From NCBI GenBank assembly GCA_964571225.1, contig CAZNBB010000002.1, positions 7,421 to 71,420 on the forward strand: DNA of 64,000 bases, given 5' to 3'. The notes beneath the pieces were generated by a model. The model had not been told where the DNA came from. It did not search any database and saw nothing but the letters and a program-made list of their open reading frames with translations. A program made the position numbers and the translations under genes. This stretch comes from an uncultured Gammaproteobacteria bacterium (GTDB lineage Bacteria; Pseudomonadota; Gammaproteobacteria; DATFLG01). Below, in pieces: positions 9,843-54,022 of the stretch. Numbering within the stretch: the first letter of the stretch is position 1; every line of letters begins with the position of its first letter.

Positions 9843-10330
9843 GCCCCTTCCACCTTTTCCAGACCCGCACGGGGACATGCCTGCAACAGGTCGTCCAGCG
9901 ATCCGCGCCCCGGAATCCGCAGGTGCGGTGCAATCTCCGCCAATGGGTAGAGCACGAATGCCCTCTCATGCATCCCCGGATGGGGCACGGTAAGACCGTC
10001 CTCGCCCAGTTCCAGATCTCCATACAGCAGCAGATCAAGATCCAGCGTACGGGGTCCCCAATGCCGGCCGCGCACACGCTTGTGGGCGGCTTCGATGGCC
10101 TGCAGATGCTTGAGCAGGGTCAGCGGCGGCAGAGTCGTGTCCAGCGCCGCCACCGCATTGATATAGTCGGGCTGGTCCGGCGGACCCATGGGCGGACTGC
10201 GGTACAGCGCCGATACCGGGCCCAAGCGGGTATTGGGCAGCGCATCCAGCGCCTGAAGTGCACGGCGCACCTGCGCCGCCGGATCCTGCAGATTGCTGCC
10301 CAGCCCGATATAAGCCCTGCTCAGGCTCAA
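9839..10330 (-). CDS. folK: 2-amino-4-hydroxy-6-hydroxymethyldihydropteridine pyrophosphokinase (HPPK)
   Basis: Conserved core from ...LSRAYIGLGSNL to DLDLLLYGD and HPGMHERAFVLYPL. There is no ATG, so the proposed start is the TTG at 10330, overlapping the pcnB stop codon (TTGA). This gives 163 aa. The track ORF up to 10738 is an overlap with pcnB. Confidence 0.75.
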   Translation of the reverse strand: MSLSRAYIGLGSNLQDPAAQVRRALQALDALPNTRLGPVSALYRSPPMGPPDQPDYINAVAALDTTLPPLTLLKHLQAIEAAHKRVRGRHWGPRTLDLDLLLYGDLELGEDGLTVPHPGMHERAFVLYPLAEIAPHLRIPGRGSLDDLLQACPRAGLEKVEGA

Positions 10331-11673
10331 CCGGCCGCCTCCCCGGAAGCCCGGCGCGGCGAACGCCGACGCCGGCGTTTGCGTGGCGCCCCGCCTTCGG
10401 TACGCCGATCCCGTTCCTCCGGTTCCAGGGTCTGGAATTCCGTCCACCACTGACAGAGTTCCTCCGGGACCTCGCCACTTTCGCCGCGCAGCAACAGGAA
10501 ATCGTAGGCGGCCCGAAAGCGCGGGTTGCCCAGCAGCCGCTGCGGGCGTTTGCCGGTGCGCTGTTCGAAACGGGGCTGCAGCGCCCAGATCTCGCGCATG
10601 GGCAGGCTGAACCGCTTGGGCAGCGAAACATGCCGGCATTGATCGCTCACGATCTGGCGGCCTGCCGACTGGATCGCCTGGGCTTCGGTCATGCCCTCCT
10701 CGCGGAAACGGGTCAGCCAACGGCTCATTGGAGCCCACAGCAGAGCCGCGAACAGGAACGCAGGCGTCACCGGTTTGTCCGCATTCACCCGCGCATCGGT
10801 GTTGGCAAGGGCCTTGGCAAGCAGCGTCTGGGGAAAGCCTTGCGTCTCCTGGGCAAGGGCCTCCTCGGTGAACGGGAACAGGTGATCGAACAGATCGTAA
10901 TGGCGCAGCAGCTCATAGCTCGGCAGGGCGGCACCGGACATGAACAGTTTGAGTATCTCCTCGTACAGGCGGGCCGGCGGCATTTCTCTCAGCAGGTGGC
11001 CCAGTTCCCAAAGCGGCCCCTCGCTGTCCGGATGGATACGAAAGCCCAGCTTGGCGGCAAAGCGTACGGCGCGCAGCATGCGCACCGGATCCTCGCGATA
11101 GCGGCGTTCCGGGTCGCCGATCAACCGCAGCACCCCGTCCTTGAGATCCGCCATGCCGCCGACGTAATCCACGACAGAGAAGTCGGCGATGTTGTAATAC
11201 AGGGCGTTGACGGTGAAGTCCCGCCTCCAGGCATCTTCCTCGAGGGTGCCGTAGACATTGTCGCGCAGGATGCGACCGTTCTCGATGCGCCGAGCCTGTC
11301 CGTCGTCTTCCTCTTCCTCGTCATCCTCGTCGGGCGCGTACAGGGCCCGGAAGGTGGCCACCTCGATCACTTCACGGCCGAACACCACGTGGGCCAGGCG
11401 GAAACGACGCCCGATCAGGCGGCAATTGCGAAACAGTTGCCGAACCTGCTCGGGATGGGCGTCGGTGCCCACGTCGAAATCCTTGGGCTCGCGCCCGAGC
11501 AGCAGATCGCGCACGCCGCCGCCCACCAGGTAGGCCTGGTAACCGGCGTTGTGGAGGCGATAGAGCACCTTGACCGCATTCGGGCTGATGCTGGCCCTCG
11601 AGATGGTGTGCTCGGGGCGCGCGATCACGGCGGGCTCGGCGGCATACTCCGGTGTCTTCTCTTCGCTGGTCAC
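10327..11673 (-). CDS. pcnB: Poly(A) polymerase I
   Basis: 448 aa. ...LVGGGVRDLLLGREPKDFDVGTDA (NTase motif) and RDFTVNALYY. Upstream of folK as in E. coli. Confidence 0.92.
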   Translation of the reverse strand: MTSEEKTPEYAAEPAVIARPEHTISRASISPNAVKVLYRLHNAGYQAYLVGGGVRDLLLGREPKDFDVGTDAHPEQVRQLFRNCRLIGRRFRLAHVVFGREVIEVATFRALYAPDEDDEEEEDDGQARRIENGRILRDNVYGTLEEDAWRRDFTVNALYYNIADFSVVDYVGGMADLKDGVLRLIGDPERRYREDPVRMLRAVRFAAKLGFRIHPDSEGPLWELGHLLREMPPARLYEEILKLFMSGAALPSYELLRHYDLFDHLFPFTEEALAQETQGFPQTLLAKALANTDARVNADKPVTPAFLFAALLWAPMSRWLTRFREEGMTEAQAIQSAGRQIVSDQCRHVSLPKRFSLPMREIWALQPRFEQRTGKRPQRLLGNPRFRAAYDFLLLRGESGEVPEELCQWWTEFQTLEPEERDRRTEGGAPRKRRRRRSPRRASGEAAG

Positions 11674-11752: not shown

Positions 11753-11828
11753 GCTCCCATCGTCTAGCGGTCCAGGACGTCGCCCTCTCACGGCGAAAAC
11801 CGGGGTTCGATTCCCCGTGGGAGCGCCA
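11753..11828 (+). tRNA. tRNA-Glu (anticodon CUC)
   Basis: A 76-nt cloverleaf: GCTCCCA acceptor stem, anticodon loop CTCTCAC, GGTTCGATTCC T-arm and a 3' GCCA. Close to the E. coli tRNA-Glu scaffold. Confidence 0.85.
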
Positions 11829-12126: not shown

Positions 12127-13854
12127 ATGTCGAGAACTGACCACGAGCAGGCCACTGGGGCATCGCCGGCCCCCGACCGCGGCCATTGGCTGCGCGATCT
12201 GTTGCTGCTGACGCTGCTGCTGGGTCTGTATCTCGGGTTCCAGATGGGCCAGCGGGCGATATGGAACCCGGACGAAGGTCGGTATTCCGAAATACCCCGC
12301 GAAATGGTGGTCAGCGGCAATTACGTCACCCCCCACCTGGACGGGGTCAAGTATTTCGAGAAGCCGCCCCTGTTCTACTGGCTGCAGGCTGCCTCCATAA
12401 AGGTATTCGGCCTCCATCAGTGGGACCTGCGCCTTTGGCCCGTCCTGTTCGCCCTGTTCGGCAGTCTGATGGTGTACGGGGCGGGGCGCCAGATGTTCGG
12501 GCGACGCGCCGGACTGCTGTCGGCCATGGTGCTGGCCACCAGCCTGCTCTACTACTTTCTGGGACGGGCCATCATCCTGGACATGGCCGTTTCCATTCTG
12601 ATGGCAGCGGCCATGCTGACCTTCCTGCTGGGCGTACGCGGGCCGCCGGGGCCGACCCGGCGAAACTATCTCTGGGCCTTCTACGTCTTCATGGCGCTGG
12701 CCACTCTCACCAAGGGCCTGATCGGCATCGCGCTGCCGGGATTGGTCATCCTTGTGTGGATGGCTTTGCTCAACGAATGGCGTCTGCTGCGCAGCATCTA
12801 CCTGCCCTCCGGACTGCTGATCTATCTGGTGGTGGCCACGCCGTGGCACGTGCTGGTGAGCATCGCCAATCCGGAGTTCCCCTACTTCTATTTCATCCAG
12901 CAACAGTTCCTGCGCTATCTGACCATGAGTGCGCACCGCTACCAGCCGGACTGGTTCTTCATCCCCATCCTGCTGCTGGGCATGGTGCCCTGGACTGTTT
13001 TCATGTTCCAGGCTGTATGGAAGGGCCTGCCCGAATCCTGGGGCCGGCGCAAAGAGCACAAGGAAACGCTGTTCCTCGTGCTGTGGGCAGTGCTGATCTT
13101 CGTGTTCTTCTCCCTGTCGAAGTCCAAGCTGGTGCCCTACATCCTGCCTATCTTTCCGGCCCTCGCCCTGCTGATCGGGCGCTGGCTGGCGCAACAACCC
13201 GCCGCCGGCGCGGTGCGCCGCCCCCTGGCCGTGCTGGCACTGCTGGGCCTGGCCGGGGCGGTTGCCATCGCTATGCTGCCCAACGGACTGGCGCGAAGCC
13301 ACAGCGCGCTGGAGTTCAACCGCATGGTGGGCACTTCGCAGATCTACCTGATGGCGGTAGTGCTGGCCGTTGCCAGCATTGTCCCCTATCTGCTGGCCCG
13401 CCGGGCCCGGCTGGATGTCGCGCTGGTCAGCATGGCGGTGCTGTTCGGAGGGTTTCACACCGTGGTGGGCCACGCGCTGACCGGCCTCGATCCGAAATGG
13501 TCGGTGCGAGCCATGGCCGAGATGATAAAGCCGGAGCTGAAGCCGGACGATGCGGTGGTGACCTATAACACCTACTTCCAGGAACTGCCGGTGTATTTGC
13601 AGCGCCGGGTGATTATCGTCAACTGGAAGAACGAGTTGACCTTCGGCTCAAAATACCAGGACACCAGCGGTTGGATGATTGACACGGCCCAGTTCTGGAA
13701 GCTGTGGAACAGCGACCGCGCAGTCTACGTGTTCGCCAATGCCGGAGACTATCAGCAACTGGTCGAAGGCGCCCACGGACGCTACCGCGTGCTGGCCCGC
13801 AATGCCTACCATGTGCTGCTCACCAACCAGCCGGCCGGCGCCGGTCCACACTGA
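12127..13854 (+). CDS. arnT: Undecaprenyl phosphate-alpha-4-amino-4-deoxy-L-arabinose arabinosyl transferase (GT family 39/83, ArnT-like)
   Basis: 575 aa polytopic protein. N-terminal ...RAIWNPDEGRYSEIPREMVVSGNYVTPHLDGVKYFEKPPLFYWL is the ArnT/PMT family signature loop. Context with arnBCAD supports the call. Confidence 0.8.
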   Translation: MSRTDHEQATGASPAPDRGHWLRDLLLLTLLLGLYLGFQMGQRAIWNPDEGRYSEIPREMVVSGNYVTPHLDGVKYFEKPPLFYWLQAASIKVFGLHQWDLRLWPVLFALFGSLMVYGAGRQMFGRRAGLLSAMVLATSLLYYFLGRAIILDMAVSILMAAAMLTFLLGVRGPPGPTRRNYLWAFYVFMALATLTKGLIGIALPGLVILVWMALLNEWRLLRSIYLPSGLLIYLVVATPWHVLVSIANPEFPYFYFIQQQFLRYLTMSAHRYQPDWFFIPILLLGMVPWTVFMFQAVWKGLPESWGRRKEHKETLFLVLWAVLIFVFFSLSKSKLVPYILPIFPALALLIGRWLAQQPAAGAVRRPLAVLALLGLAGAVAIAMLPNGLARSHSALEFNRMVGTSQIYLMAVVLAVASIVPYLLARRARLDVALVSMAVLFGGFHTVVGHALTGLDPKWSVRAMAEMIKPELKPDDAVVTYNTYFQELPVYLQRRVIIVNWKNELTFGSKYQDTSGWMIDTAQFWKLWNSDRAVYVFANAGDYQQLVEGAHGRYRVLARNAYHVLLTNQPAGAGPH

Positions 13855-15031: not shown

Positions 15032-15970
15032 ATGCATCCGTACCTGAGCATCGTCGTACCCGTCTACAACGAACAGGATAACCTGCAGCCCCTGTTCGAC
15101 CGCCTGACCGCCACCCTGGACGCGCTGGACAAGCCCTACGAGATCTGGTTCACCAACGACGGCAGCCGCGACCGTTCCGGCATGCTGTTGGCGCAGTTTC
15201 ACGAACAAAGGCCTCACCAGGTACGGGTCATCGAGTTCAACGGCAACTTCGGTCAGCACCAGGCCATCATGGCGGCCTTCGAGCGGGTACGGGGCGAGGT
15301 GGTGGTGACCCTGGATGCCGATCTGCAGAACCCGCCGGAGGAGATACCCAGGCTGGTCGCGCAGATCGAGGCCGGCCACGACGTGGTTGGGGGCTATCGG
15401 CGGGCCCGTCAGGACACCTGGTTCCGACGCTATGCGTCACGGGCCATAAACCGTGTCAGGGAACACACCACCCATATCCGTATGCGCGACCAGGGCTGCA
15501 TGCTGCGCGCCTATCGACGGGAAGTGGTGGACTGCATCGTACGAACCGGAGAGCGTTCCACCTTCATCCCCGCCCTGGCCCTGAGCTTCTCCAGCCACCC
15601 CACTGAAGTGGAAGTGGCCCATGCCGCCCGCGCGGCCGGAACGTCCAAGTACAGTCTGTACAAGTTGATCCGCCTGAACTTCGACCTGATGACCGGGTTT
15701 TCGCTGGTGCCGCTGCAGATATTCACCATGTTCGGGATGCTGGTCGCCCTGATGAGCGGGCTGTTCGTGTTTTACCTGGCCATCCGCCGGCTGGTGGTGG
15801 GGCCTGAAGCCCAGGGCGTGTTCACCCTGCTGGCCATCCTGTTCTTCCTGGTGGGCATCGTGATCTTCGGCCTTGGGGTGATCGGAGAGTACGTGGGCAG
15901 AATCTACGAACAGGTGCGCAACCGCCCCGGTTTCATGATCCGCACGGTGCTGGAGAAACCCGATGAATGA
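15032..15970 (+). CDS. arnC: Undecaprenyl-phosphate 4-deoxy-4-formamido-L-arabinose transferase (GT2)
   Basis: MHPYLSIVVPVYNEQDNL...TNDGSRD...LDADLQNPPEE (GT2 DxD) plus C-terminal TM helices. 312 aa. Confidence 0.88.
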   Translation: MHPYLSIVVPVYNEQDNLQPLFDRLTATLDALDKPYEIWFTNDGSRDRSGMLLAQFHEQRPHQVRVIEFNGNFGQHQAIMAAFERVRGEVVVTLDADLQNPPEEIPRLVAQIEAGHDVVGGYRRARQDTWFRRYASRAINRVREHTTHIRMRDQGCMLRAYRREVVDCIVRTGERSTFIPALALSFSSHPTEVEVAHAARAAGTSKYSLYKLIRLNFDLMTGFSLVPLQIFTMFGMLVALMSGLFVFYLAIRRLVVGPEAQGVFTLLAILFFLVGIVIFGLGVIGEYVGRIYEQVRNRPGFMIRTVLEKPDE

Positions 15971-16910
15971 AGCGGGCGGCACCCCGCGGGTCCTGGTGTT
16001 CGCCTACCAGGACGTGGGGTATGTCTGCCTGCAGGAACTGATCTGCCGCGGGGTACGGCCGGCGGCCGTATTCACCCACGCGGACGCCGCCGGGGAAAAC
16101 ATCTGGTTCCGCTCGGTGGCGGCACTGGCCGCTGCCCATGACATCGCCGTTCATACACCGGCGTCCGTGAACACGCCGCAATGGACCCAGCGCATCCGCG
16201 ACCTGCAGCCCGATCTGCTGCTGTCGTTCTATTACCGGGATCTCATCGGCACGGCCATCGTCGACATGCCGGCCCTGGGCGCATACAACCTGCACGGCTC
16301 ACTGCTGCCAAAGTACCGGGGACGGGCGCCGGTGAACTGGGCGCTGGTGTTCGGCGAAACGCAAACCGGCGTCACCCTGCACCGCATGGTGGCACGGGCG
16401 GACGCCGGAGACATTGTCGACCAGGAACCGGTAGCCATCGGTCCCGCGGACAGCATCCGCGAGGTCTACGACGGCATCGTGGGTGCGGCAAGGAAGGTCA
16501 TCGCCCGCCAGCTGGACGACCTGCTGAACGGCCGGGTGCGATCCCGCCCCCAGGACGAGGCCGGCGCCACCGTGGTCAAAGGCCGGCGGCCGGACGACGG
16601 GCGCATCGACTGGCGGTGCGACGCACATACGGTCTTCAACCTGGTACGGGCGGTCACCCACCCCTACCCCGGCGCATTTACAGAGGTCGGAGACCGCCGC
16701 TTCTATATCTGGTGGGCCGAACCCGTTGACCAAGATGGGGCCGGCACCGAACCCGGCGAAGTGACCGGGACGGCACCGCTATGCATCGCCTGCGGCCGGG
16801 GCAGCCTGCGGGTACGGCAGTGGCAATGGGAAAATGACCGCCAACGGCGTTCCGACGAACGATTCGATGCGGGTCTGCGCATCGGTCAGCGCCTGGGCAA
16901 CTTTTTTTGA
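15963..16910 (+). CDS. arnA: UDP-L-Ara4N formyltransferase; the ArnA N-terminal domain encoded as a stand-alone gene
   Basis: Aligns along its length to the E. coli ArnA formyltransferase domain (VLVFAYQDVGY, SFYYRDLI, NLHGSLLPKYRGRAPVNWALVFGE, HRMVARADAGDIV). It ends where the E. coli inter-domain linker lies. Its start overlaps the arnC stop (ATGAATGA). Confidence 0.85.
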   Translation: MNEAGGTPRVLVFAYQDVGYVCLQELICRGVRPAAVFTHADAAGENIWFRSVAALAAAHDIAVHTPASVNTPQWTQRIRDLQPDLLLSFYYRDLIGTAIVDMPALGAYNLHGSLLPKYRGRAPVNWALVFGETQTGVTLHRMVARADAGDIVDQEPVAIGPADSIREVYDGIVGAARKVIARQLDDLLNGRVRSRPQDEAGATVVKGRRPDDGRIDWRCDAHTVFNLVRAVTHPYPGAFTEVGDRRFYIWWAEPVDQDGAGTEPGEVTGTAPLCIACGRGSLRVRQWQWENDRQRRSDERFDAGLRIGQRLGNFF

Positions 16911-16940: not shown

Positions 16941-17987
16941 ATGAAGATCCTGATTCTCGGCGTTAATGGTTTCATCGGCAACAGCCTGACCGAGCGGATA
17001 CTGAAGGAGCGGGACTGGGAGGTCTACGGAATGGACATGGCCTGTGACAAGCTCGGCGAGAGCCTGGGCCACGACCGCTTCCATTTCGTCGAGGGCGATA
17101 TCACCATCAATCGGGAATGGATCGAGTATCACGTCAAGAAGTGCGACGTCGTGCTGCCCTTGGTGGCCATCGCCACACCCGCCACCTATGTTCAGGATCC
17201 GCTGCGGGTGTTCGAGCTGGACTTCGAGGCGAACCTGGACATCGTGCGTCAGTGCGTACGCTACGGCAAGCGGGTGCTGTTCCCCTCCACCTCCGAAGTC
17301 TACGGGATGTGCCCCGACAGTCAGTTCGACGAGGAAAACTCGAACCTGGTACTGGGCCCCATCCACAAGCAGCGCTGGATCTACTCCTGCTCCAAACAGC
17401 TTCTGGACAGGGTCATCTATGCATACGGCCAGCAACATGGTCTGCGTTTCACCCTGTTCCGTCCGTTCAACTGGATCGGCCCGAAGCTGGACGACGTGCT
17501 CGAGCCCAAGGAAGGCAGCTCCCGTGTGCTGACCCAGTTCATCAGCAATATTCTGCACGGCAAGGATATTCTGCTGGTGGACGGCGGCAGCCAGCGGCGC
17601 AGCTTCACCTATATCGACGACGGCATCGACGCCCTGCTCCGCATCATCGAGAACCAGGACAACTGTGCCGAAGGCCGTATCTTCAACATCGGCAATCCGG
17701 CCAACGACATGTCGGTGAAGGACCTTGCCGAAACCCTGGTCAGGCTGATACGCGAGTATCCCCAGTGGAGCGAACGGGCGGACAAGGTCCGGCTGGTCAC
17801 CACCGAATCGGAAAGCTACTACGGCAGCGGCTATCAGGACATCATGACCCGCGTCCCGTCCATCGAAAACGCCAAGCGCCATCTGGGCTGGTCGCCGAAG
17901 ATCGACCTGGAGACGGCCTTGCGCAAGACGCTGGACTATTACTCACGGCAGGCCGACACCGGGGGCTCGGATAGCACCGCGCAATGA
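16941..17987 (+). CDS. arnA: UDP-glucuronic acid oxidative decarboxylase; the ArnA C-terminal dehydrogenase domain as a separate gene
   Basis: MKILILGVNGFIGNSLTERILKE...HFVEGDI...FPSTSEVYGMC...YSCSKQLLDRV match the E. coli ArnA C-domain almost motif-for-motif. 348 aa. Confidence 0.88.
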   Translation: MKILILGVNGFIGNSLTERILKERDWEVYGMDMACDKLGESLGHDRFHFVEGDITINREWIEYHVKKCDVVLPLVAIATPATYVQDPLRVFELDFEANLDIVRQCVRYGKRVLFPSTSEVYGMCPDSQFDEENSNLVLGPIHKQRWIYSCSKQLLDRVIYAYGQQHGLRFTLFRPFNWIGPKLDDVLEPKEGSSRVLTQFISNILHGKDILLVDGGSQRRSFTYIDDGIDALLRIIENQDNCAEGRIFNIGNPANDMSVKDLAETLVRLIREYPQWSERADKVRLVTTESESYYGSGYQDIMTRVPSIENAKRHLGWSPKIDLETALRKTLDYYSRQADTGGSDSTAQ

Positions 17988-18937
17988 CCCAGCCACAGCT
18001 CGCCATCAAGGTCGACGTGGATACCGAGCGGGGCACCCGTATCGGCGTCCCGAATCTGGTGGCGTTGCTGGAGCGGCTGGGAATTCAGGCGACTTTCCTG
18101 TTCTCCCTGGGGCCGGACAATACGGGCCGGGCCATCAAGCGCATCTTCCGGCCCGGCTTCTTCGGCAAGGTGGTACGCACCAGCGTGGTCAGCACCTACG
18201 GACTGCGCACCCTCATGAACGGCGTACTGCTGCCGGGTCCCCACATAGGACGCCGCCACGGCGCATTGATGCGGTCCGTCAGGGACGCGGGCCATGAGGT
18301 GGGGATCCATTGCTACGACCACATCCGTTGGCAGGATGGTCTGGCCCGCATGAGACCCGACCAGGTGGTCGCCGAACTGGGTAAGGCCCGACAGGAATTC
18401 GAACGCATATTCGCCGAGCCGGCCCGCACCGCGGGAGCGGCGGGCTGGCAGGCAAACGCGGCCAGTCTGTGCGCCTATGACGAGGCCGGTTTCAGCTACG
18501 CCAGCGACGCCCGCGGAAACGAGCCGTTCTTTCCCTGTGCCGGCGCCCGGCGCTACCGCACCCTGCAGATCCCCACCACTCTACCCACCCTGGACGAGTT
18601 GCTGGGGCGCCCCGAGTATCCGGAAACGCGCCTGGTACAGCACTACCTGGAAATGTTGAGCGGCGACCGGCTCAACGTGCTCACTGCCCATGCCGAGATC
18701 GAAGGCATGGCCAAACTCCAGCTGTTCGAGGACCTGCTGCAACAGGCTCGCGCCGCGGATGTGAGCTTCGTGCGCCTGGACCGCTACGCCGCCGCACGCC
18801 TGGCAAGTCCCGATGACATCCCCGCCTGCGAGCTGGTGGCGGGCACCGTGGACGGGCGTTCGGGAACCCTGGCGGTGCAGGGCCGCCCCTGCACCGACTC
18901 CGCGGATCACCAGCCGGCAGGCCTACCCGCCGGCTGA
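17984..18937 (+). CDS. arnD: 4-deoxy-4-formamido-L-arabinose-phosphoundecaprenol deformylase (NodB/polysaccharide deacetylase fold)
   Basis: MTQPQLAIKVDVDTERG...FLFSLGPDN...GHEVGIHCYDH. Its start overlaps the arnA-DH stop (ATGA). 317 aa. Confidence 0.82.
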   Translation: MTQPQLAIKVDVDTERGTRIGVPNLVALLERLGIQATFLFSLGPDNTGRAIKRIFRPGFFGKVVRTSVVSTYGLRTLMNGVLLPGPHIGRRHGALMRSVRDAGHEVGIHCYDHIRWQDGLARMRPDQVVAELGKARQEFERIFAEPARTAGAAGWQANAASLCAYDEAGFSYASDARGNEPFFPCAGARRYRTLQIPTTLPTLDELLGRPEYPETRLVQHYLEMLSGDRLNVLTAHAEIEGMAKLQLFEDLLQQARAADVSFVRLDRYAAARLASPDDIPACELVAGTVDGRSGTLAVQGRPCTDSADHQPAGLPAG

Positions 18938-18947
18938 ATGGCGCCTG

Positions 18948-19280
18948 TCAGTCATGGGCCACATCGGCCAGCTCGCCCATCACCTCGGTGACCGAGGCCT
19001 CGGCGTTGGCCACCAGGCAGACCACATTGCCCACGCTGCACACCGTGTTGTCCTTGCCGCGGACGATCCAGCCTCGCGGCGGAGTCCAGCCCCGGGTCTG
19101 GGTGAACATGGAAAGCTGGTCGGCGTTGCCCTGGACCATACGCTTATAGTCGTGGGCGAACTTGGCCAGCTTCACCATCTGCTCGTCGTCCAGCATCCCG
19201 TAACCCTGCACCAGCACTCCGTCGTCACGAAACTGACAAACCACAGCGACGCCGTCCAGGGCAAGCATTCTCTTGATCAT
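18948..19280 (-). CDS. Small hypothetical protein, paralog 3 of the tandem triplet
   Basis: 110 aa with an SD-like GGGGG before the ATG. Motifs VVCQFRDDGVL, RGWTPPRGWIVRGKDNTVC and a C-terminal part clearly alignable to paralog 1. Confidence 0.6.
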   Translation of the reverse strand: MIKRMLALDGVAVVCQFRDDGVLVQGYGMLDDEQMVKLAKFAHDYKRMVQGNADQLSMFTQTRGWTPPRGWIVRGKDNTVCSVGNVVCLVANAEASVTEVMGELADVAHD

Positions 19281-19289
19281 ACCGCCCCC

Positions 19290-19628
19290 TTACCCCGGCA
19301 AGGCGCCGTAGGCGGCCTGATAATCGGCCGCTTCATTGCGAAGCACGACCCCACGGTTGCCGCTGGCCACCGCCGACCAATCGAAACCGATCATGGTAAA
19401 GCCGTCGATTGGATAGAAGCCCTGGGCACCGGTCATCTTCTCCCAACCCCGTGCCTGCATGGTGGCAATGGAAATGTTGGCCACGCACACGTGGCACAGT
19501 AGATCCAGAGTATCGGGCGTCAAGTCGTTGCCCTCGGCAATGCGATGCTCGCGCAGCTCCCCGCGGTCGGAAAATTCGAACGCCGCCAGCGCTCCAGGCA
19601 ATTCCATCAACTGTTCAAGACTGCTCAT
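19290..19628 (-). CDS. Small hypothetical protein, paralog 2 of the tandem triplet
   Basis: 112 aa with a strong SD (GGGGAGGAATACCAATG). Motifs AAFEFSDRGEL and RGW are shared with the neighbours. Confidence 0.6.
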   Translation of the reverse strand: MSSLEQLMELPGALAAFEFSDRGELREHRIAEGNDLTPDTLDLLCHVCVANISIATMQARGWEKMTGAQGFYPIDGFTMIGFDWSAVASGNRGVVLRNEAADYQAAYGALPG

Positions 19629-19661
19629 TGGTATTCCTCCCCGTCCCCTTGCCTTCTTCGC

Positions 19662-20018
19662 TCAGACGATCGCCTCGATGTCGGCCAGCCGCCGGTACAT
19701 GAGCCCGATGATGTCGTTCATGGACGCATTGGCGTTGTCCAGAAAGCAGAACACGTTGGCCATCACGCACACCGTGAACTTGGGACCGCGCACCACCCAG
19801 CCCCGCGAGGGCGTGAACGCGCACTGGTCACCGCAGTATGCGCCGAGAATGTCCGCCTGCATGTGCACACCCATGGTCGTTGCGCGGCACATGATGGACG
19901 CCATTCGCGCCTGTTCCTCGTCGAGCTGCCCCTTGTAGGTAAAGCGGTCGCCGCGATAGGAATACTCGCCTGCCGCAAACACCCCTTTCAGATTGGAAAG
20001 TTCAGCAACGATTGACAT
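19662..20018 (-). CDS. Small hypothetical protein, paralog 1 of a tandem triplet (possible Roadblock/LC7-like or DUF2173-type fold)
   Basis: 118 aa with its own SD (GGAGTGGAGGTGAAATG). Shares motifs with the next two ORFs (AAGEYSYRGDRF, RGW..RG, TVC..N..C..A.A). Confidence 0.6.
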   Translation of the reverse strand: MSIVAELSNLKGVFAAGEYSYRGDRFTYKGQLDEEQARMASIMCRATTMGVHMQADILGAYCGDQCAFTPSRGWVVRGPKFTVCVMANVFCFLDNANASMNDIIGLMYRRLADIEAIV

Positions 20019-20165
20019 TTCACCTCCACTCCCTCTCAGTGGTTATTGTTATTTGAATGTCAAATCGTTCTTACCATACCCGGCTGCGTGTTGCCACCAT
20101 TGCGCCTTTCCGGGCCGGGTGGTTATTCTTGGCGGGTTTGCTGTTCTCGCCCCGGACTTGCATTG

Positions 20166-20690
20166 ATGGCTGATTCCGCCCCCCCCCGCGCCGCGCCGCA
20201 ACCGGCCGGCCTTGCACGGCGTCTGGCCGCCATGGTGTACGACGGCCTGGTGCTGTTCGCCGTCTTGGTGCTCGCTTCGGCCATCGCACTGGCGGTCAAC
20301 GGGGGCAAGGCCGTGCCGGCGGGCAATCCGCTCAACCAGGCCTGGCTGTTTTTCGTCACCTATTTCTTTTTCGCCTGGTTCTGGACCCATGGCGGCCAGA
20401 CGGTCGGGATGCGGGCGTGGAGGATTCGCGTACAGCGCCGGGACGGCGGCCCCATCTCATGGACCCAGGCGCTGCTCAGGTTCGCACCGGTGCTGCTTCT
20501 GGCGGTGGTGATGTACGTCCCCGACAAGGTCTTCGAGATCGCGCTGATCTGCTGGGGCGTCTTGGTGGCGCTGGACTTTCTGTGGGTATGGGTCGACGCT
20601 GACCGACTCACCTGGCATGACCGCTATGCCAACACGGTGGTGGTAAACGTGCTGCCGCCCGGACCGGCGCCGGACGGCCAGGAACACTGA
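20166..20690 (+). CDS. RDD family membrane protein
   Basis: MADSAPP...LARRLAAMVYDGLVLFAVLVLA...GQTVGMRAWRIRVQRRDG: the RDD motif arrangement with 3 TM segments. The start is the internal ATG of the track ORF at 20046. Confidence 0.7.
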   Translation: MADSAPPRAAPQPAGLARRLAAMVYDGLVLFAVLVLASAIALAVNGGKAVPAGNPLNQAWLFFVTYFFFAWFWTHGGQTVGMRAWRIRVQRRDGGPISWTQALLRFAPVLLLAVVMYVPDKVFEIALICWGVLVALDFLWVWVDADRLTWHDRYANTVVVNVLPPGPAPDGQEH

Positions 20691-28669: not shown

Positions 28670-28922
28670 AACATGCCCTGCTTCATTTCGGTGGCCGCTG
28701 GCCGCTCAATTGTACGACGGCCCCGAACCCCTCACCAGCGGGGTACCGGCGCCGGCGCTCTCAAGTTGTTGATAGAAAGGCCGCTAAACGCGTAGTCAGG
28801 CATAATTTTAACTAGATAAAACGTAGGGTTGTGCATGTTGCGGCAATCGTTGACCCCGATTGCGGCACGGAAGCCTTGACACCCGCATGCGCCTTCGGAG
28901 AAGCACAGGAGCAAGGCTGTCA

Positions 28923-29984
<1,062 letters not shown>

Positions 29985-30220: not shown

Positions 30221-31255
30221 ATGCGACACTCCCCCACACCCACGCATCGACGGCGCCCCGCACGGCCCATGACCGGCCCGGACGGCGCGAGCGCAATCCG
30301 CACGACCCATCTGAGGGTTGTGGCGACCCTGGGTACCCTGGCTGCGGTGGCGTGGACGCAGACCGGCGATGCGCGATCCTGGACCGCCGTACTCATCCTG
30401 AGCACCTATGTTGCGATCACTGCGGGCGTGCAACTGGCGGCCCGCCGCGCCCCCATTCGATCCGCGCTCACACGCCCTGCCTCGCTGTTCGCGGACGTGG
30501 CCGTCACCACATTGGGGATCTATTACTCGGGCGACGCCGCGGCGGCGATGTTGCCCGTGTATGTAACCCTGTGCGCCGAATACGGCATGCGCTTCGGAGC
30601 CCGCTATCTGTGGTGGGCCGCCACCCTGGGCGCGGCGGGGGTACTGTGCCTGTGGGTGCTCGACAATGGCGCACTGCGTTCGCACCTGACGGTGGTCGGC
30701 CTGGCGGGCGGTATCGCCATCGCCATGGTATATCTGGACGCTCTGTGGGCGAGGCGGCGCTCCGCCGCCACCGACCGCGGGCAAACCGAAGCGACGGCAC
30801 AATCCGCCGACACGATCCCGCCGCCCAGGACCGCCGAGGGCACGTGCGCGCAGATTCAGGCACCGGCGTGGACGATCGCACGGGAAACGCCATTGATGGA
30901 CGAACGGATTCTGGCAGATCTCCGGTGTCTGAGCGGGAACAGGGACTTCATGGCTGTGCTGGCCGACGGCTTCGTAGAGGAAACGCAATCCCTGTCGCAG
31001 GATCTGCAACAAGCGGTCGAGAACCATGACCACGGGGCCTACCAGGACTGTCTGTACGCTCTCAAGAGCAGCGCCGCCAACATCGGCGCCCGCCAGTTGC
31101 ACCAGCTTTGCCAGCAGGCCCTCGCCGCGGATGCCGGGGACAGCGACAACGGCGGCCGCCAGTGGCTGTCCCGGATTCGCCAATGCATATGCCGGACCCA
31201 CAGGGCTTTGCTGGACACTGGAGTCATGGGCCGCGAGGCCCGGCACCAGGATTGA
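30221..31255 (+). CDS. Polytopic membrane protein with a C-terminal Hpt-like domain (putative phosphotransfer protein)
   Basis: The N-terminal roughly 190 aa contain multiple TM helices and are paralogous to the N-terminus of the adjacent kinase (LPVYVTLCAEYGMRFGARYLWWAATLGAAG vs FPVYLWVAVGNGLRYGGRYLLLATGLALTG). The C-terminus carries ...LYALKSSAANIGARQL, an Hpt signature with Tyr where His is expected. The start is uncertain and may be the ATG at 30269. Confidence 0.65.
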   Translation: MRHSPTPTHRRRPARPMTGPDGASAIRTTHLRVVATLGTLAAVAWTQTGDARSWTAVLILSTYVAITAGVQLAARRAPIRSALTRPASLFADVAVTTLGIYYSGDAAAAMLPVYVTLCAEYGMRFGARYLWWAATLGAAGVLCLWVLDNGALRSHLTVVGLAGGIAIAMVYLDALWARRRSAATDRGQTEATAQSADTIPPPRTAEGTCAQIQAPAWTIARETPLMDERILADLRCLSGNRDFMAVLADGFVEETQSLSQDLQQAVENHDHGAYQDCLYALKSSAANIGARQLHQLCQQALAADAGDSDNGGRQWLSRIRQCICRTHRALLDTGVMGREARHQD

Positions 31256-31293: not shown

Positions 31294-33456
31294 TCATTGC
31301 GCCTGTCCGGCGGGTACCGCAGCGGCTGTCGAAATGCCTGCCGCCACCAACTCGAGCAGTCGATCCGGCTCCACCGGCTTGGTCAGAAAGTAATCGGCAC
31401 CGGCCCCGTAGGCCGCCTGCTGACTCTCCCGGGTTGCGTCCGCAGTCAGCACGATGACCGCCGTCCCCCGCCGTCCGGCGGGAAGCGCGGCGCGGTAGCG
31501 GCGTACCGCGTCCAGCCCCGACAGATCCGGCATCTGTATATCGACGATCGCCAACGGGTAGCGGTCGGTATTCAACTCGGCCAGCAGCGCCGCGCCGGAG
31601 CCGACCAGGTCGGGCCGGTAGCCCGCCCTTTCCAGCACGCGTCGTATCACCAGTTGATTGATCCGGTTGTCCTCCCCCACCAGTATGCGCACGTCCCGGG
31701 GCCGGCTTGCAGCGGTCGCCGGCTGCTCTGCCACGGGCGCAGTCCTGTTGTACAGGATCTGCGCCAGATGCACAGCCGCACAGAGTTCCGCAGCGTCCAA
31801 CGGCAGACCTGCGATGGCGCTGTAACCGGCCTGCAGCGCACGCTCCCGGCCCGCAACCGACAGGTCCGCGGCCAACAGCAGCCAGCGCGGGCCGGAATCG
31901 GGACCTTTGCGACGCCAGTGCGTCGGCAACGCCAGTACCCTCGCGTCACTGCAATTTTCAGCGACGACCCATACCCAGCGCCTGGCTTCCCGGTCCGGAC
32001 GCCACTCCAGCGCATCGACCAGCTCCTGGCGCGTATGGCAGAAGGTGGCGCCGGTGACGCCCGCCGCCCGGAACTGTCCGTCCAGCACGGCCGCATCCTC
32101 CCCCCGCACGGAATACACCAGAACTTCTGCACCCACGGGCCTTTCCAGCGGATGATCTGACGCCGGCACTGTCTCCAGGCCAAGTTCGATCCAGAAGCAA
32201 CTCCCCGCTCCGGGGCTGCTCTGCACCCCGATGCTCCCGCCCATCAATTCCACCAGCTGCTTGGCGATCGCCGTGCCCAGCCCGGTGCCTCCGAACCGGC
32301 GTGCCGTGGAATCGTCCGCCTGGCGGAACCGTTCGAAGATGTGGGCTTGCGCCTGTGGCGCGATGCCGGCGCCCGTATCGCGCACTTCCAGACGCAGCCA
32401 CTGGGCCTGGGGATGGGACTGAGCCCTGCACAAGCGGATAACCACCTGCCCGCGGTCCGTGAATTTCACCGCATTGCCCACCAGGTTCGTCATCACCTGG
32501 CGCAGGCGGCTGGCGTCCCCGCGGCGGTGGAACGGCAGCCGTGTATCCACATCCAGCAACAGGGACAGCCCCTTCGCGGCCGCCTGGGCCCGGAACATGT
32601 GCCAGACCGACGACAGCAGCTCGTACAGGTCGAACGGGTTGTCTTCCAGGGTGATGCGCGCTTCTTCGACCTTGGCGAAATCCAGCACCTCGTCCACCAG
32701 TGCCCCCAGGCCCACCGCCGACTCGTGGATATCCTGCACCAGTTCCTTGTCCTGGGCGGTGAGATCCCGTCCCTGCAACAGATGGCTGAGTCCGATGACC
32801 GCATTGAGGGGCGTGCGCAACTCGTGGCTCATATTGGCGAGAAAGCGGCTCTTGGCGTCATTGGCCGCCTGGGCGTGACGCCTCTGGGCATCCAGTTGCC
32901 GCAACAGACGCCAAACGTAGAAGGGCACCACGCTGAGCAGCAGGATCATGCCGGTCATCAGTGTCGGCTGCCCGTACCAGAAGGGGGTGGCTACCGCCAT
33001 TGCCACGAAACCCGTGAGCGCCAACCCGGTGGCCAACAGCAGATAGCGCCCTCCATAGCGCAAGCCGTTGCCCACCGCGACCCACAGGTAGACCGGAAAC
33101 AGCGGCACCCCGAAGGTGCCCAGGTAGTGCATGACGGCACTGAGACCGGCGATGTCGGCCAGCGCGGCGGCCACCCGTCGCATGGCGGACACGTTGCGGC
33201 TGAAGACGATGAGCGCCACCCACCCACAGGACAGCACGGCGAACGCCGCGCCGATGACAATCACGGGGTCGGTGATGCCGGCGACGGCCCCGACCTCGAG
33301 TCGCACGAGGGCCGTTACATAGGCAAGATAAGCAACAGCGATCCCGACCCGGATGAGCGCCTGCTCGTGCTCGGTATCCTGCCGCCCCGCTCCGAGACGG
33401 GCCAAGCGCCCGATCAACGGATTGCGGCCCATCCGACTGGTTTCTTTTGCATCCAC
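31294..33456 (-). CDS. Hybrid sensor histidine kinase: membrane sensor domain, HisKA, HATPase_c, a degenerate receiver-like region, then REC
   Basis: H-box ...FLANMSHELRTPLNAV, G-boxes DTGAGIA and GGTGLGTAI, and a C-terminal REC with ILVGEDN...IVDIQMPDLSGLD...TKP. 720 aa. Confidence 0.88.
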   Translation of the reverse strand: MDAKETSRMGRNPLIGRLARLGAGRQDTEHEQALIRVGIAVAYLAYVTALVRLEVGAVAGITDPVIVIGAAFAVLSCGWVALIVFSRNVSAMRRVAAALADIAGLSAVMHYLGTFGVPLFPVYLWVAVGNGLRYGGRYLLLATGLALTGFVAMAVATPFWYGQPTLMTGMILLLSVVPFYVWRLLRQLDAQRRHAQAANDAKSRFLANMSHELRTPLNAVIGLSHLLQGRDLTAQDKELVQDIHESAVGLGALVDEVLDFAKVEEARITLEDNPFDLYELLSSVWHMFRAQAAAKGLSLLLDVDTRLPFHRRGDASRLRQVMTNLVGNAVKFTDRGQVVIRLCRAQSHPQAQWLRLEVRDTGAGIAPQAQAHIFERFRQADDSTARRFGGTGLGTAIAKQLVELMGGSIGVQSSPGAGSCFWIELGLETVPASDHPLERPVGAEVLVYSVRGEDAAVLDGQFRAAGVTGATFCHTRQELVDALEWRPDREARRWVWVVAENCSDARVLALPTHWRRKGPDSGPRWLLLAADLSVAGRERALQAGYSAIAGLPLDAAELCAAVHLAQILYNRTAPVAEQPATAASRPRDVRILVGEDNRINQLVIRRVLERAGYRPDLVGSGAALLAELNTDRYPLAIVDIQMPDLSGLDAVRRYRAALPAGRRGTAVIVLTADATRESQQAAYGAGADYFLTKPVEPDRLLELVAAGISTAAAVPAGQAQ

Positions 33457-51931: not shown

Positions 51932-54022
51932 ATGAGTCGCGGCCTTCGCAACCCCGCTGTGGCGGGCGGCGCAATCCTGCTGCTGCTGGTCGCCGCCGGC
52001 GTGGCCGCCGTACTCTGGTACGTCTCACTGGAACAGCAACGGGACCTGCATGACTGGCAGATCCGTCTCGGCCTGATCGCCGACAGCCGCGCTGACGCCG
52101 TCGACCGCTGGGTGACTACACAGTTCGACGCACTGCAGGAACTGGCGGACAACGCCTCCCTGCAGATGTACGCCACCCAGTTGGAGTTGCAACCCAAGCT
52201 GCAGAGCGACAACGTCGAGCCCGCCCAGCTCAGCTACCTGCGCAGCCTGATCATCGCCACCGCCCAGCGCAGGGGCTTCATCGACCCAAGCCCGCTCAGT
52301 ACCGTCATCCGGGCCAACGTACCCGGTCACAGCGACGCCGGACTGGCCCTGCTCGATCCGGGCGGCAAGCTGCTGGTGGCCACACCCGGCATGCCCGCGC
52401 TGGACAAGGGCTACCGGGCCGCCGCCCGGCGGGCCGTGGAGACCGGGCAGCGAACAGTTCGCGACATTCATCTGAACGCGGCCGGAACCCCGGTCATGGG
52501 CTTCGTCGTCCCGGTCTACGCCGTACAGGGAGCACAACAGGGCCGCACCGCCCATGCGATCGCTGTGATCCTCGGGGTGAAGAACGTACAAAGCAGCCTC
52601 TATCCGCTGATCCGCAGTCACAACCTGCTCACGGACCAGGACCAGACTCTGCTGGTGCGCCGCGAGGGCAATTCGGTGGTCTATCTGAGTCCGCTGGAGG
52701 ACAGCAGCCGTCCCACGTCGCGGCGGCTCGCCCTGAATAACCCGGACCTGGCGGCGGCGTTTGCGCTCCAGCACCCGGGCGCGTTCGCGCGACTGCACAA
52801 CTATCAGGGTACGGACGTACTGATGACCAGCCGCCAGCTGAGCGCGGCCCCGTGGGTGCTGGTCCAGGAAGCCGGCGCCGCGCCCGCTCTGAAGGAATCG
52901 AACGATCACCGGCGCTTTCTGCTGACCGCCCTGCTGCTGACCATCTTTCTGGTCGCCGCCAGCCTGGTGGCGGCCTGGCGTCACGGCACCAGTGTGCGCG
53001 CTCTGACCATGGCGGAACACCTGCGTACGACGTCCCGCGAGTTGGAAGTACGCACCGCGCTGCTGCATGCGATCACCGACAACGTCACCGACCACATCTA
53101 TCTCGCGGACCCGCAGCAGCATTTCATATTCGCCAACGGCTCCCTGGCACAGGTCACCGGATTGGCCGGCGGGGACTTCGCCGGCAAATCCCTCACCAGC
53201 GTGCTGGGGCCAGAGACAGCGAAGAGACTGTCCGATTTTGCGGACCAGGCGCTGCAGGACAATCATCCGGTGGTGGTTACCCGCTCGTTGGATCTGGGCG
53301 ACGGCAGCCGGGTGTTCCACTGCGCTTTCATTCCACTGGCACACGTGAACGGCCTGGAGCGTACCGTACTGACCGTGCTGCACGACATCACGGATCTTCA
53401 GCAGGCGCAGATCAAACGCTCGGCGCTGCTGCGCCAGTTGATCATCACCCTGGTACGGGTCGTGGACATGCACGATCCCTATTCCGCCAATCACTCGGCG
53501 CGCATGGCGGAGGTGGCGCTGGCGGTGGGACGGTCCATGCTGCTGAGCCAGACGGAGCTTGAGACCCTGGAACTGGCAGCGCAGCTGGCGAATCTTGGAA
53601 AGATCTTCGTTCCCAAGGAAATACTCACCAAGACCGGCGCTCTCACCGAGGCCGACCAGGAGGTCCTCAAGAAGCATGTCCAGTACACACTGGACATGCT
53701 CTCCGGAATCGACTTCGACGGACCGGTACTGGAAACCATCGCCCAGAAGCAGGAGCACTGCGATGGCAGCGGCTATCCGAAGGGACTGATTGGGGACGAG
53801 ATGCTGCTGACCGCGAAGATACTGGCCGTGGCCAACGCCTTCGTCGCCATGGTCAGCCCGCGCGCCTATCGCGACGCCGTGTCGGTGGACGCAGCCCTGG
53901 ACCGGCTGTTGGCCGACAGTCACAGCCGCTACGATCGCCATGTGGTCGCCGCGCTGTTCCACGTGGCCGAGAACCGGTCCGACTGGTCAACATGGCCGAA
54001 GATACAGCCGCCGGAAGCCTAG
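51932..54022 (+). CDS. Membrane-bound HD-GYP phosphodiesterase with a large periplasmic sensor domain and a cytoplasmic PAS-like region
   Basis: TM1 (AILLLLVAAGVAAVLWYV), a periplasmic domain of about 300 aa, TM2 (FLLTALLLTIFLVAASLVAAW), a PAS-like segment, then HD...HCDGSGYPKGL (HD-GYP). 696 aa. Confidence 0.8.
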   Translation: MSRGLRNPAVAGGAILLLLVAAGVAAVLWYVSLEQQRDLHDWQIRLGLIADSRADAVDRWVTTQFDALQELADNASLQMYATQLELQPKLQSDNVEPAQLSYLRSLIIATAQRRGFIDPSPLSTVIRANVPGHSDAGLALLDPGGKLLVATPGMPALDKGYRAAARRAVETGQRTVRDIHLNAAGTPVMGFVVPVYAVQGAQQGRTAHAIAVILGVKNVQSSLYPLIRSHNLLTDQDQTLLVRREGNSVVYLSPLEDSSRPTSRRLALNNPDLAAAFALQHPGAFARLHNYQGTDVLMTSRQLSAAPWVLVQEAGAAPALKESNDHRRFLLTALLLTIFLVAASLVAAWRHGTSVRALTMAEHLRTTSRELEVRTALLHAITDNVTDHIYLADPQQHFIFANGSLAQVTGLAGGDFAGKSLTSVLGPETAKRLSDFADQALQDNHPVVVTRSLDLGDGSRVFHCAFIPLAHVNGLERTVLTVLHDITDLQQAQIKRSALLRQLIITLVRVVDMHDPYSANHSARMAEVALAVGRSMLLSQTELETLELAAQLANLGKIFVPKEILTKTGALTEADQEVLKKHVQYTLDMLSGIDFDGPVLETIAQKQEHCDGSGYPKGLIGDEMLLTAKILAVANAFVAMVSPRAYRDAVSVDAALDRLLADSHSRYDRHVVAALFHVAENRSDWSTWPKIQPPEA

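Follow-up and report, generated by a model that had tools for sequence, protein, structure and literature searches.

In a 64,000-nucleotide stretch of contig CAZNBB010000002.1 from an uncultured gammaproteobacterium (hereafter the window), three adjacent minus-strand genes, termed A, B and C, form a fixed A-B-C operon of DUF2173 paralogs whose members were never found apart. All three are real genes under strong purifying selection, and between clades nothing but the triplet is preserved, as no neighboring gene is kept. On balance, we consider it somewhat probable that A, B and C constitute a hetero-oligomeric regulatory or scaffold complex of the Roadblock type, whose partner would be encoded elsewhere.

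Three DUF2173 paralogs in a conserved operon

The preliminary description of this region, made from the sequence alone, reported three consecutive minus-strand open reading frames (ORFs) of 118, 112 and 110 residues with spacers of 33 nt (A-B) and 9 nt (B-C), and both the coordinates and the sequence agree with it (Table 1). It also placed a Shine-Dalgarno sequence before each ORF; we find GGAGG-type ribosome-binding sites 5-8 nt before the start codons of A and B (in A, GGAGG is located 5 nt upstream of the ATG) and a weaker, G-rich AAGGGGG before C. The proteins can be aligned with one another, as was claimed, at pairwise identities of 27-33% and with 13 invariant columns. The two cysteines said to be shared by the first and third paralogs correspond to a TVC..(G/A)N..C pair that is common to A and C, whereas the central RGW...RG motif ascribed to all three proteins holds for A and C but not for B, which contains (D/G)GF..(I/V)G. 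In A, the cross-strand pair (VCV..N.FCF) is accompanied by a conserved cysteine in helix α2 (IMCRATT). B lacks the β4/β5 cysteine pair and instead contains CHVC in its long helix α2, as part of the signature LLCHVCVAN..IATMQARGW; its residues C47, N50, Q57, G60, W61 and P72 are invariant. In the window, the three genes occupy a single reading frame (a stop followed by 11 codons, then a stop followed by 3 codons, GGG). Read-through was rejected as an explanation, and the shared frame is ascribed to chance because it is kept in only 16 of 63 loci. Just past the C stop codon, within the last arnD codons, there is an 8-bp G+C-rich inverted repeat with a 10-nt loop (CAGCCGGC / GCCGGCTG, 18911-18936); it is not followed by a T-run and was not among the terminators called by the scan.

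All three proteins match the Pfam family DUF2173 (PF09941) over positions 2-105 of its 106, with E-values of 6.1e-36, 9e-33 and 4e-35 and scores of 123.4, 113.2 and 120.7 bits for A, B and C, respectively (gathering score 26.1). They display the family pattern of about 105-130 residues containing GV.AAGEF..dG.L, W.P..GW..G and a cysteine in β4, from which B departs in the β3-β5 region (GF.P..GF, no β4 cysteine). The DUF2173 assignment and the Roadblock label are already in public annotation, as NCBI and JGI annotate these exact proteins as DUF2173/Roadblock; the public entry (PF09941 / COG4831, ‘Roadblock/LC7 domain’) gives neither a function nor a fixed three-paralog operon. The family has few members: an exhaustive profile search of 1.84 billion cluster representatives (50% identity) yielded 209 at E <= 1e-3. 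Single-linkage clustering of the representatives was uninformative, since the A, B and C groups become linked through metagenomic proteins that are chimeric or frameshifted. No NCBIfam family covers the three ORFs. PADLOC gave no match and PHROGs a single insignificant one (B, E 0.0037), and we therefore see no link to defence or phage functions.

The preliminary description likened the proteins to Roadblock/LC7 (MglB-like) or DUF2173-type domains. Both suggestions are borne out, DUF2173 by profile comparison and the Roadblock likeness by structure comparison; the Pfam Robl_LC7 model (PF03259) itself has no match at E <= 1 in A, B or C. A weak Robl_LC7 / LAMTOR5 signal is present in some family members (10 of 105 diverse members have Robl_LC7 matches, best E 2.5e-4), and searches of the PDB sequences with 3- and 105-sequence profiles recovered no Roadblock structure and nothing else relevant. 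C was modeled with AlphaFold using a 105-sequence alignment (the alignments and the model begin after residue 1); without an alignment, AlphaFold gave a useless model of A (predicted local distance difference test score 41). C is modeled end to end as one compact soluble domain, an α-β-β-α-β-β-β(-α) sandwich that superposes on solved Roadblock domains. The model thus assigns DUF2173 a predicted Roadblock/LC7 fold, and the family is a divergent branch of that fold superfamily. The most conserved parts of each paralog are the β1-β2 hairpin, α2, and the loop plus β3, and α3 is variable.

Orthologues of each paralog are 57-98% identical over about 90 loci. A search of metagenomes with a trimmed B-type alignment recovered 80 loci, every one from the clade of the window, and a contig scan with the three-paralog alignment gave 4 loci. 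In the metagenomic loci, median identity to the window protein is 62% for A (75 loci), 69% for B (80 loci) and 68% for C, whereas LptF, LptG and the RDD protein reach only 41-43% in the same loci; A, B and C are thus better conserved than the adjacent essential LptF/LptG. Ratios of nonsynonymous to synonymous substitution rates (dN/dS) against close relatives are 0.03-0.13 for A, 0.05-0.12 for B and 0.03-0.14 for all three. Ribosome-binding sites recur in relatives before A (69/74 loci), B (81/85) and C (53/75). These conservation data, together with the DUF2173 E-values, already refute the reading that the three genes are spurious ORFs of a GC-rich genome or duplicates in decay, to which we give practically no credence. 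In its favor was a naive gene call weighting G+C content at third codon positions (GC3) by length, in which an antisense ORF (19459-19938, plus strand, 159 residues, GC3 0.79) overlapping A and B out-scored both. The antisense ORF was rejected as an artefact of the 65% G+C content because the homologues and the selection signal belong to A and B.

The order of the genes is as well preserved as their sequences. Wherever the flank allows a call in the metagenomic loci, A is upstream of B (67/67) and C is downstream (64/64); B and C are separated by a median of 9 nt (range -7 to 26), and the median distance between A and B is 42 nt. The best 120 database matches fall into three orthogroups, each protein sharing 65-98% identity with one window paralog and 20-33% with the other two. 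Far more distant triplets are found in a Sulfuriferula metagenome-assembled genome (MAG; L019/L020) and in another gammaproteobacterial MAG (L017/L018), and related single matches in Thiobacillus and Hydrogenophilales MAGs; carriers of the family also include Chromatiales. The L017 and L019 triplets are colinear with that of the window (gene 1 resembling A, gene 2 B and gene 3 C). In a neighbor-joining tree that includes the distant triplets, the position-2 (B) proteins are monophyletic in 100 of 100 bootstraps and the position-3 (C) proteins in 82 of 100. Because the distant triplets are colinear and the B and C groups monophyletic, either the triplication and its gene order predate several beta- and gammaproteobacterial lineages, or the operon moved among lineages as a unit.

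A proposed hetero-oligomer and its alternatives

In the mechanism that we favor, A, B and C would come together as a hetero-oligomer composed of Roadblock-type dimers. In the solved Roadblock dimers (MglB, LAMTOR2/3, LAMTOR4/5 and dynein LC7), the interface is formed by α2 and β3, and the dimers proposed here would likewise use helix α2 and the edge of strand β3. B and C would probably be made in equal amounts, as the 9-nt spacer suggests that their translation is probably coupled. In the cytoplasm, the complex would serve to regulate or scaffold a partner whose gene is located elsewhere in the genome; by superfamily analogy, this partner may be an NTPase, but not a neighboring small GTPase. 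We infer a hetero-oligomer because the three genes always occur together and in the same order and B-C is probably coupled; because DUF2173 domains occur fused in pairs; and because α2 and β3, which form the Roadblock dimer interface, are among the most conserved parts of each paralog. A bacterial precedent also argues for it, as the Roadblock paralogs MglB and MglC are reported to bind one another (PMC7949163).

Several points weigh against this proposal. The proposed interaction among A, B and C is deduced from gene co-occurrence, order and conservation, and the strict co-occurrence could also mean three homodimers that act in one pathway. An odd number of Roadblock paralogs maps poorly onto dimers. 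The suggestion that the partner is an NTPase draws on superfamily analogy, and monophyly of the position-1 (A) proteins was recovered in only 21 of 100 bootstraps of the neighbor-joining tree. In addition, the searchable literature holds one passing mention each of DUF2173 and COG4831, and no functional study of either or of a Roadblock protein with a sulfur relay. The mention of DUF2173, as a sulfur-induced ‘membrane protein’ from Sulfolobaceae (PMC11323534), was set aside because that protein has several transmembrane domains, unlike the soluble A, B and C.

Genomic context and the conserved cysteines bear on two other explanations. If the triplet were MglB-like, its products would be the GTPase-activating protein (GAP) or guanine nucleotide exchange factor of a Ras-like small GTPase (MglA/Rup type) whose gene is at another site in the genome. 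We regard this as improbable, as no mglA-type gene is located within about four genes of the triplet; eight independent kinds of context showed no small GTPase gene within about 10 kb, and none was seen among the neighbors of the 80 metagenomic loci. The sole GTPase of the window is the translation factor RF3 (prfC), 23 kb away, so the earlier remark that no GTPase gene is adjacent is true of the window and of every related locus seen. The missing Robl_LC7 match and an identity to MglB of about 13-15% in structural alignment also speak against an MglB-like role. Coupling of mglB to mglA is typical and not obligatory, as 328 of 749 MglB homologues are orphans (Wuichet 2014). An alternative that could coexist with the hetero-oligomer, and that we rate as unlikely, is a cysteine-based redox or persulfide sensor, sulfur carrier, or metal/Fe-S unit. 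It is suggested by the near-invariant cysteine pair at directly opposed positions of the β4-β5 hairpin in A and C (TVCSVGNVVCLV) and by the invariant α2 cysteine of B within CHVC, which is widespread in the family as MCAAN. In 4 of 8 independent contexts, DUF2173 genes have sulfur-trafficking or redox genes close by (Table 1), the carriers include Sulfuriferula, Thiobacillus, Hydrogenophilales and Chromatiales, and the single-copy members of the family have a small Cys-rich partner, to which they are fused in one lineage. Against this, the triplet has no sulfur genes beside it in the clade of the window (about 90 loci), the cysteine positions differ among the paralogs, and the 4 of 8 contexts may be chance because sulfur genes are abundant in these organisms. 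Helices cover both faces of the Roadblock sheet, so the conserved cysteines may be buried core residues, and Roadblock proteins are not mentioned in the sulfur-trafficking literature surveyed.

A link to the cell envelope, in which the triplet would work with the RDD protein and LptFG in lipopolysaccharide (LPS) export and, in this lineage, with arn in lipid A modification, is very improbable. Within the window clade, the RDD gene is divergent from and upstream of A in 44 of 48 loci and lptG is upstream in 26 of 34, RDD and A share an intergenic region of 136-240 nt, and the distant relative P0128 is fused to a lipid-binding SCP2 domain. This reading is contradicted by the distant triplets (L017, L019), beside which RDD, lpt and arn were not found, and four loci of the same clade also lack RDD. 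Moreover, A, B and C (62-69%) are much better conserved than RDD, LptF and LptG (41-43%), unlike tightly co-evolving partners, only 2 related loci have arn, and A, B and C have no predicted membrane or signal segments, in keeping with the model of C as a wholly soluble domain. The hetero-oligomer can also be combined with the cysteine chemistry: A-B-C may be a self-contained, GTPase-independent Roadblock heterocomplex of beta- and gammaproteobacteria, a bacterial counterpart of multi-paralog scaffolds such as Ragulator, in which the conserved cysteines would sense a redox or sulfur signal or pass it on to a partner other than a small GTPase. This version we hold only tentatively, as a possibility of rather low likelihood; if true, it would be a new functional class in the Roadblock superfamily.

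Genomic surroundings and other forms of the family

Pfam searches identify an arn cluster (arnT, arnB, arnC, a split arnA and arnD) on one flank of the triplet, and RDD, LptG, LptF and PepA on the other. ArnA is split into two separate ORFs in the window, unlike its E. coli counterpart, a single bifunctional protein. The general layout of the window clade is pepA / lptF-lptG / RDD (opposite strand) / A-B-C, and downstream of C the relatives are variable (purL in 8 loci, pcnB and folK in 7, and moeA, a phoH-like gene and others). Relatives with arn after C are limited to the two closest ones, L005 and L022 (L005 and 1 of about 37 metagenomic loci), and the title of the preliminary description, which located the triplet by the arn operon, is misleading in this respect. 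As pcnB (with folK) directly follows C in 7 related loci, arn appears to be a block specific to this lineage that came to be located between C and pcnB through an insertion or rearrangement beside the tRNA gene. Its adjacency is incidental and without functional link, and the finding has no bearing on arn or polymyxin resistance. To the question of what the triplet travels with, which the preliminary description had raised, the answer is therefore neither arn nor a GTPase gene; RDD-lptFG accompanies it within the window clade, but not across clades. The distant triplets occupy other sites, following clpB in L017, and dsrE-like genes and a two-component system in L019.

The promoter of A-B-C is presumed to be within the divergent RDD/A intergenic region (20019-20165). 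Scans upstream of A found no sigma70 consensus site, and no sigma54 -24/-12 element was found upstream of the triplets, unlike the single-copy subfamily described below. In the leader (20019-20070) and its equivalents in L001, L002, L004 and L005, we observe an A-rich run of A-R-N triplets just upstream of the A ribosome-binding site (AAATAACAATAAC; AACATAACAAAAAC; ACAACAACAAAATAAC). The run is conserved in kind, not in sequence, and could serve as a site for an RNA-binding regulator.

DUF2173 domains also occur in other arrangements. Natural fusions of two such domains are found in P0149, P0173 and P0237 (L009). P0128 (L010 8001-9143), which is GC-rich and actinobacterial-looking, joins two DUF2173 domains to its C-terminal SCP2 domain and follows SulP, STAS and Aminotran_5 (cysteine desulfurase-like) genes. 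A single-copy subfamily of 118-120 residues is encoded about 215-235 nt downstream of a gene for a PAS-sigma54 enhancer-binding protein in four independent contexts. A sigma54-like -24/-12 element is positioned 40-50 nt before its ATG, with palindromes further upstream (e.g. TGGCACGCCCTGTGCT in L013). The single-copy gene is followed by one for a 62-63 residue Cys protein (..ARPM..DG..WLCDK.[IV]DP...Q.CW.C..) that has no Pfam match, and in L013 (P0243) this protein is fused to the DUF2173 C-terminus, providing a Rosetta-stone link. The single-copy subfamily thus has sigma54 control and a Cys partner, whereas the triplets have neither.

Elsewhere in the window are several signaling genes (Table 1). 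A similar pair of response regulator-HD and hybrid kinase genes recurs beyond valS in L001 and L002, and we therefore regard the pair as conserved synteny.

Table 1. Positions of the DUF2173 triplet, its surroundings and selected genes of related loci
Feature	Locus	Coordinates	Strand	Remarks
DUF2173 paralog A	window	19662-20018	-	118 aa; operon gene 1; Roadblock-like; identical to MEJ2644986.1
DUF2173 paralog B	window	19290-19628	-	112 aa; operon gene 2; most divergent paralog; identical to MEJ2644987.1
DUF2173 paralog C	window	18948-19280	-	110 aa; operon gene 3; paralog chosen for structure model
Divergent intergenic region RDD/A	window	20019-20165		presumed promoter and leader of A-B-C; A-rich run AAATAACAATAAC before ribosome-binding site
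RDD-family membrane protein	window	20166-20690	+	divergent from A; Pfam RDD E 9e-23
arnD	window	17984-18937	+	converges on C; 10 nt between stop codons
arnA dehydrogenase/decarboxylase ORF	window	16941-17987		Epimerase
arnA formyltransferase ORF	window	15963-16910		Formyl_trans_N/C
arnT	window	12127-13854		arn cluster member (Pfam); then arnB, arnC, arnA, arnD
tRNA gene	window	11753-11825		between pcnB and arn cluster
pcnB	window	10327-11673		beyond arn and tRNA gene; deoxynucleoside kinase, panB and panD also there
Response regulator	window	28860-29984		HD-GYP-type HD_5 domain
Hpt protein	window	30221-31255		
Hybrid histidine kinase	window	31294-33456		
PAS-HD_5 protein	window	51932-54022		
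Sulfur/redox neighbors	L019	3422-6784		two DsrE genes
Sulfur/redox neighbors	L101	6789-11920		TusA, FlpD, HdrA-like
Sulfur/redox neighbors	L013	10660-12460		rhodanese with Sulf_transp
Sulfur/redox neighbors	L010	5535-7769		cysteine desulfurase-like with SulP/STAS
Single-copy subfamily with PAS-sigma54 activator	L013	7766-8606		
Single-copy subfamily with PAS-sigma54 activator	L015	5445-7603		
Single-copy subfamily with PAS-sigma54 activator	L101	4410-6619		
Single-copy subfamily with PAS-sigma54 activator	L103	4418-6617		
62-63 aa Cys protein	L015	7412-7603		
62-63 aa Cys protein	L101	6431-6619		
62-63 aa Cys protein	L103	6426-6617		
62-63 aa Cys protein	L013	8355-8606		fused

Comparison with known Roadblock systems

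Roadblock/LC7 proteins are known chiefly for regulating small GTPases (MglB, the conservons and Ragulator) and as dynein light chains. As of 2014, hundreds of bacterial ‘orphan’ Roadblock genes were without a characterised function (PMC4316618). Among these proteins the triplet is a clean case, as its paralogs are ancient, kept in the same order, constrained more strongly than LPS exporter genes and located away from any GTPase gene. Its fixed and ancient A-B-C operon, its strong conservation and its independence from GTPase genes and arn appear undescribed in the searchable literature. Solving it would show the role of a Roadblock module in bacteria that lack an adjacent GTPase gene and would give the DUF2173 family a function; the triplet is a well-defined experimental target, but it neither changes the understanding of the superfamily nor makes a long-standing question directly testable.

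Within the DUF2173/COG4831 family, A, B and C are full-length members, and the fixed three-paralog operon is the triplet's own feature. Of the characterized systems, MglB and MglC of Myxococcus xanthus and Thermus thermophilus are bacterial Roadblock paralogs, MglB being the GAP of the small GTPase MglA and MglC a paralog of MglB. In these organisms mglB is beside mglA, whereas the triplet has no mglA-like gene nearby and differs in comprising three paralogs in one operon, without a Robl_LC7 match and at 9-15% identity in structural alignment. A conservon consists of four genes, encoding a sensor kinase, a Roadblock protein, a DUF742 protein and a small GTPase (PMC4316618; PMC13343842). In comparison with the actinobacterial conservons (CvnB/MfpD, PDB 3kye, 3leq), none of the CvnA-D partners flanks the triplet in any locus. 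Ragulator, with its eukaryotic LAMTOR2/3 and LAMTOR4/5 heterodimers, is a multi-paralog Roadblock scaffold, as the triplet would be if its products assemble as proposed; the Asgard archaeal Roadblock proteins are counted among the closest known systems as well. Ragulator works with Rag GTPases that contain Roadblock domains of their own and with the membrane anchor p18, and nothing comparable, including a Rag-like gene, was seen near the triplet; the co-occurrence of three paralogs is nevertheless compatible with a Ragulator-like scaffold.
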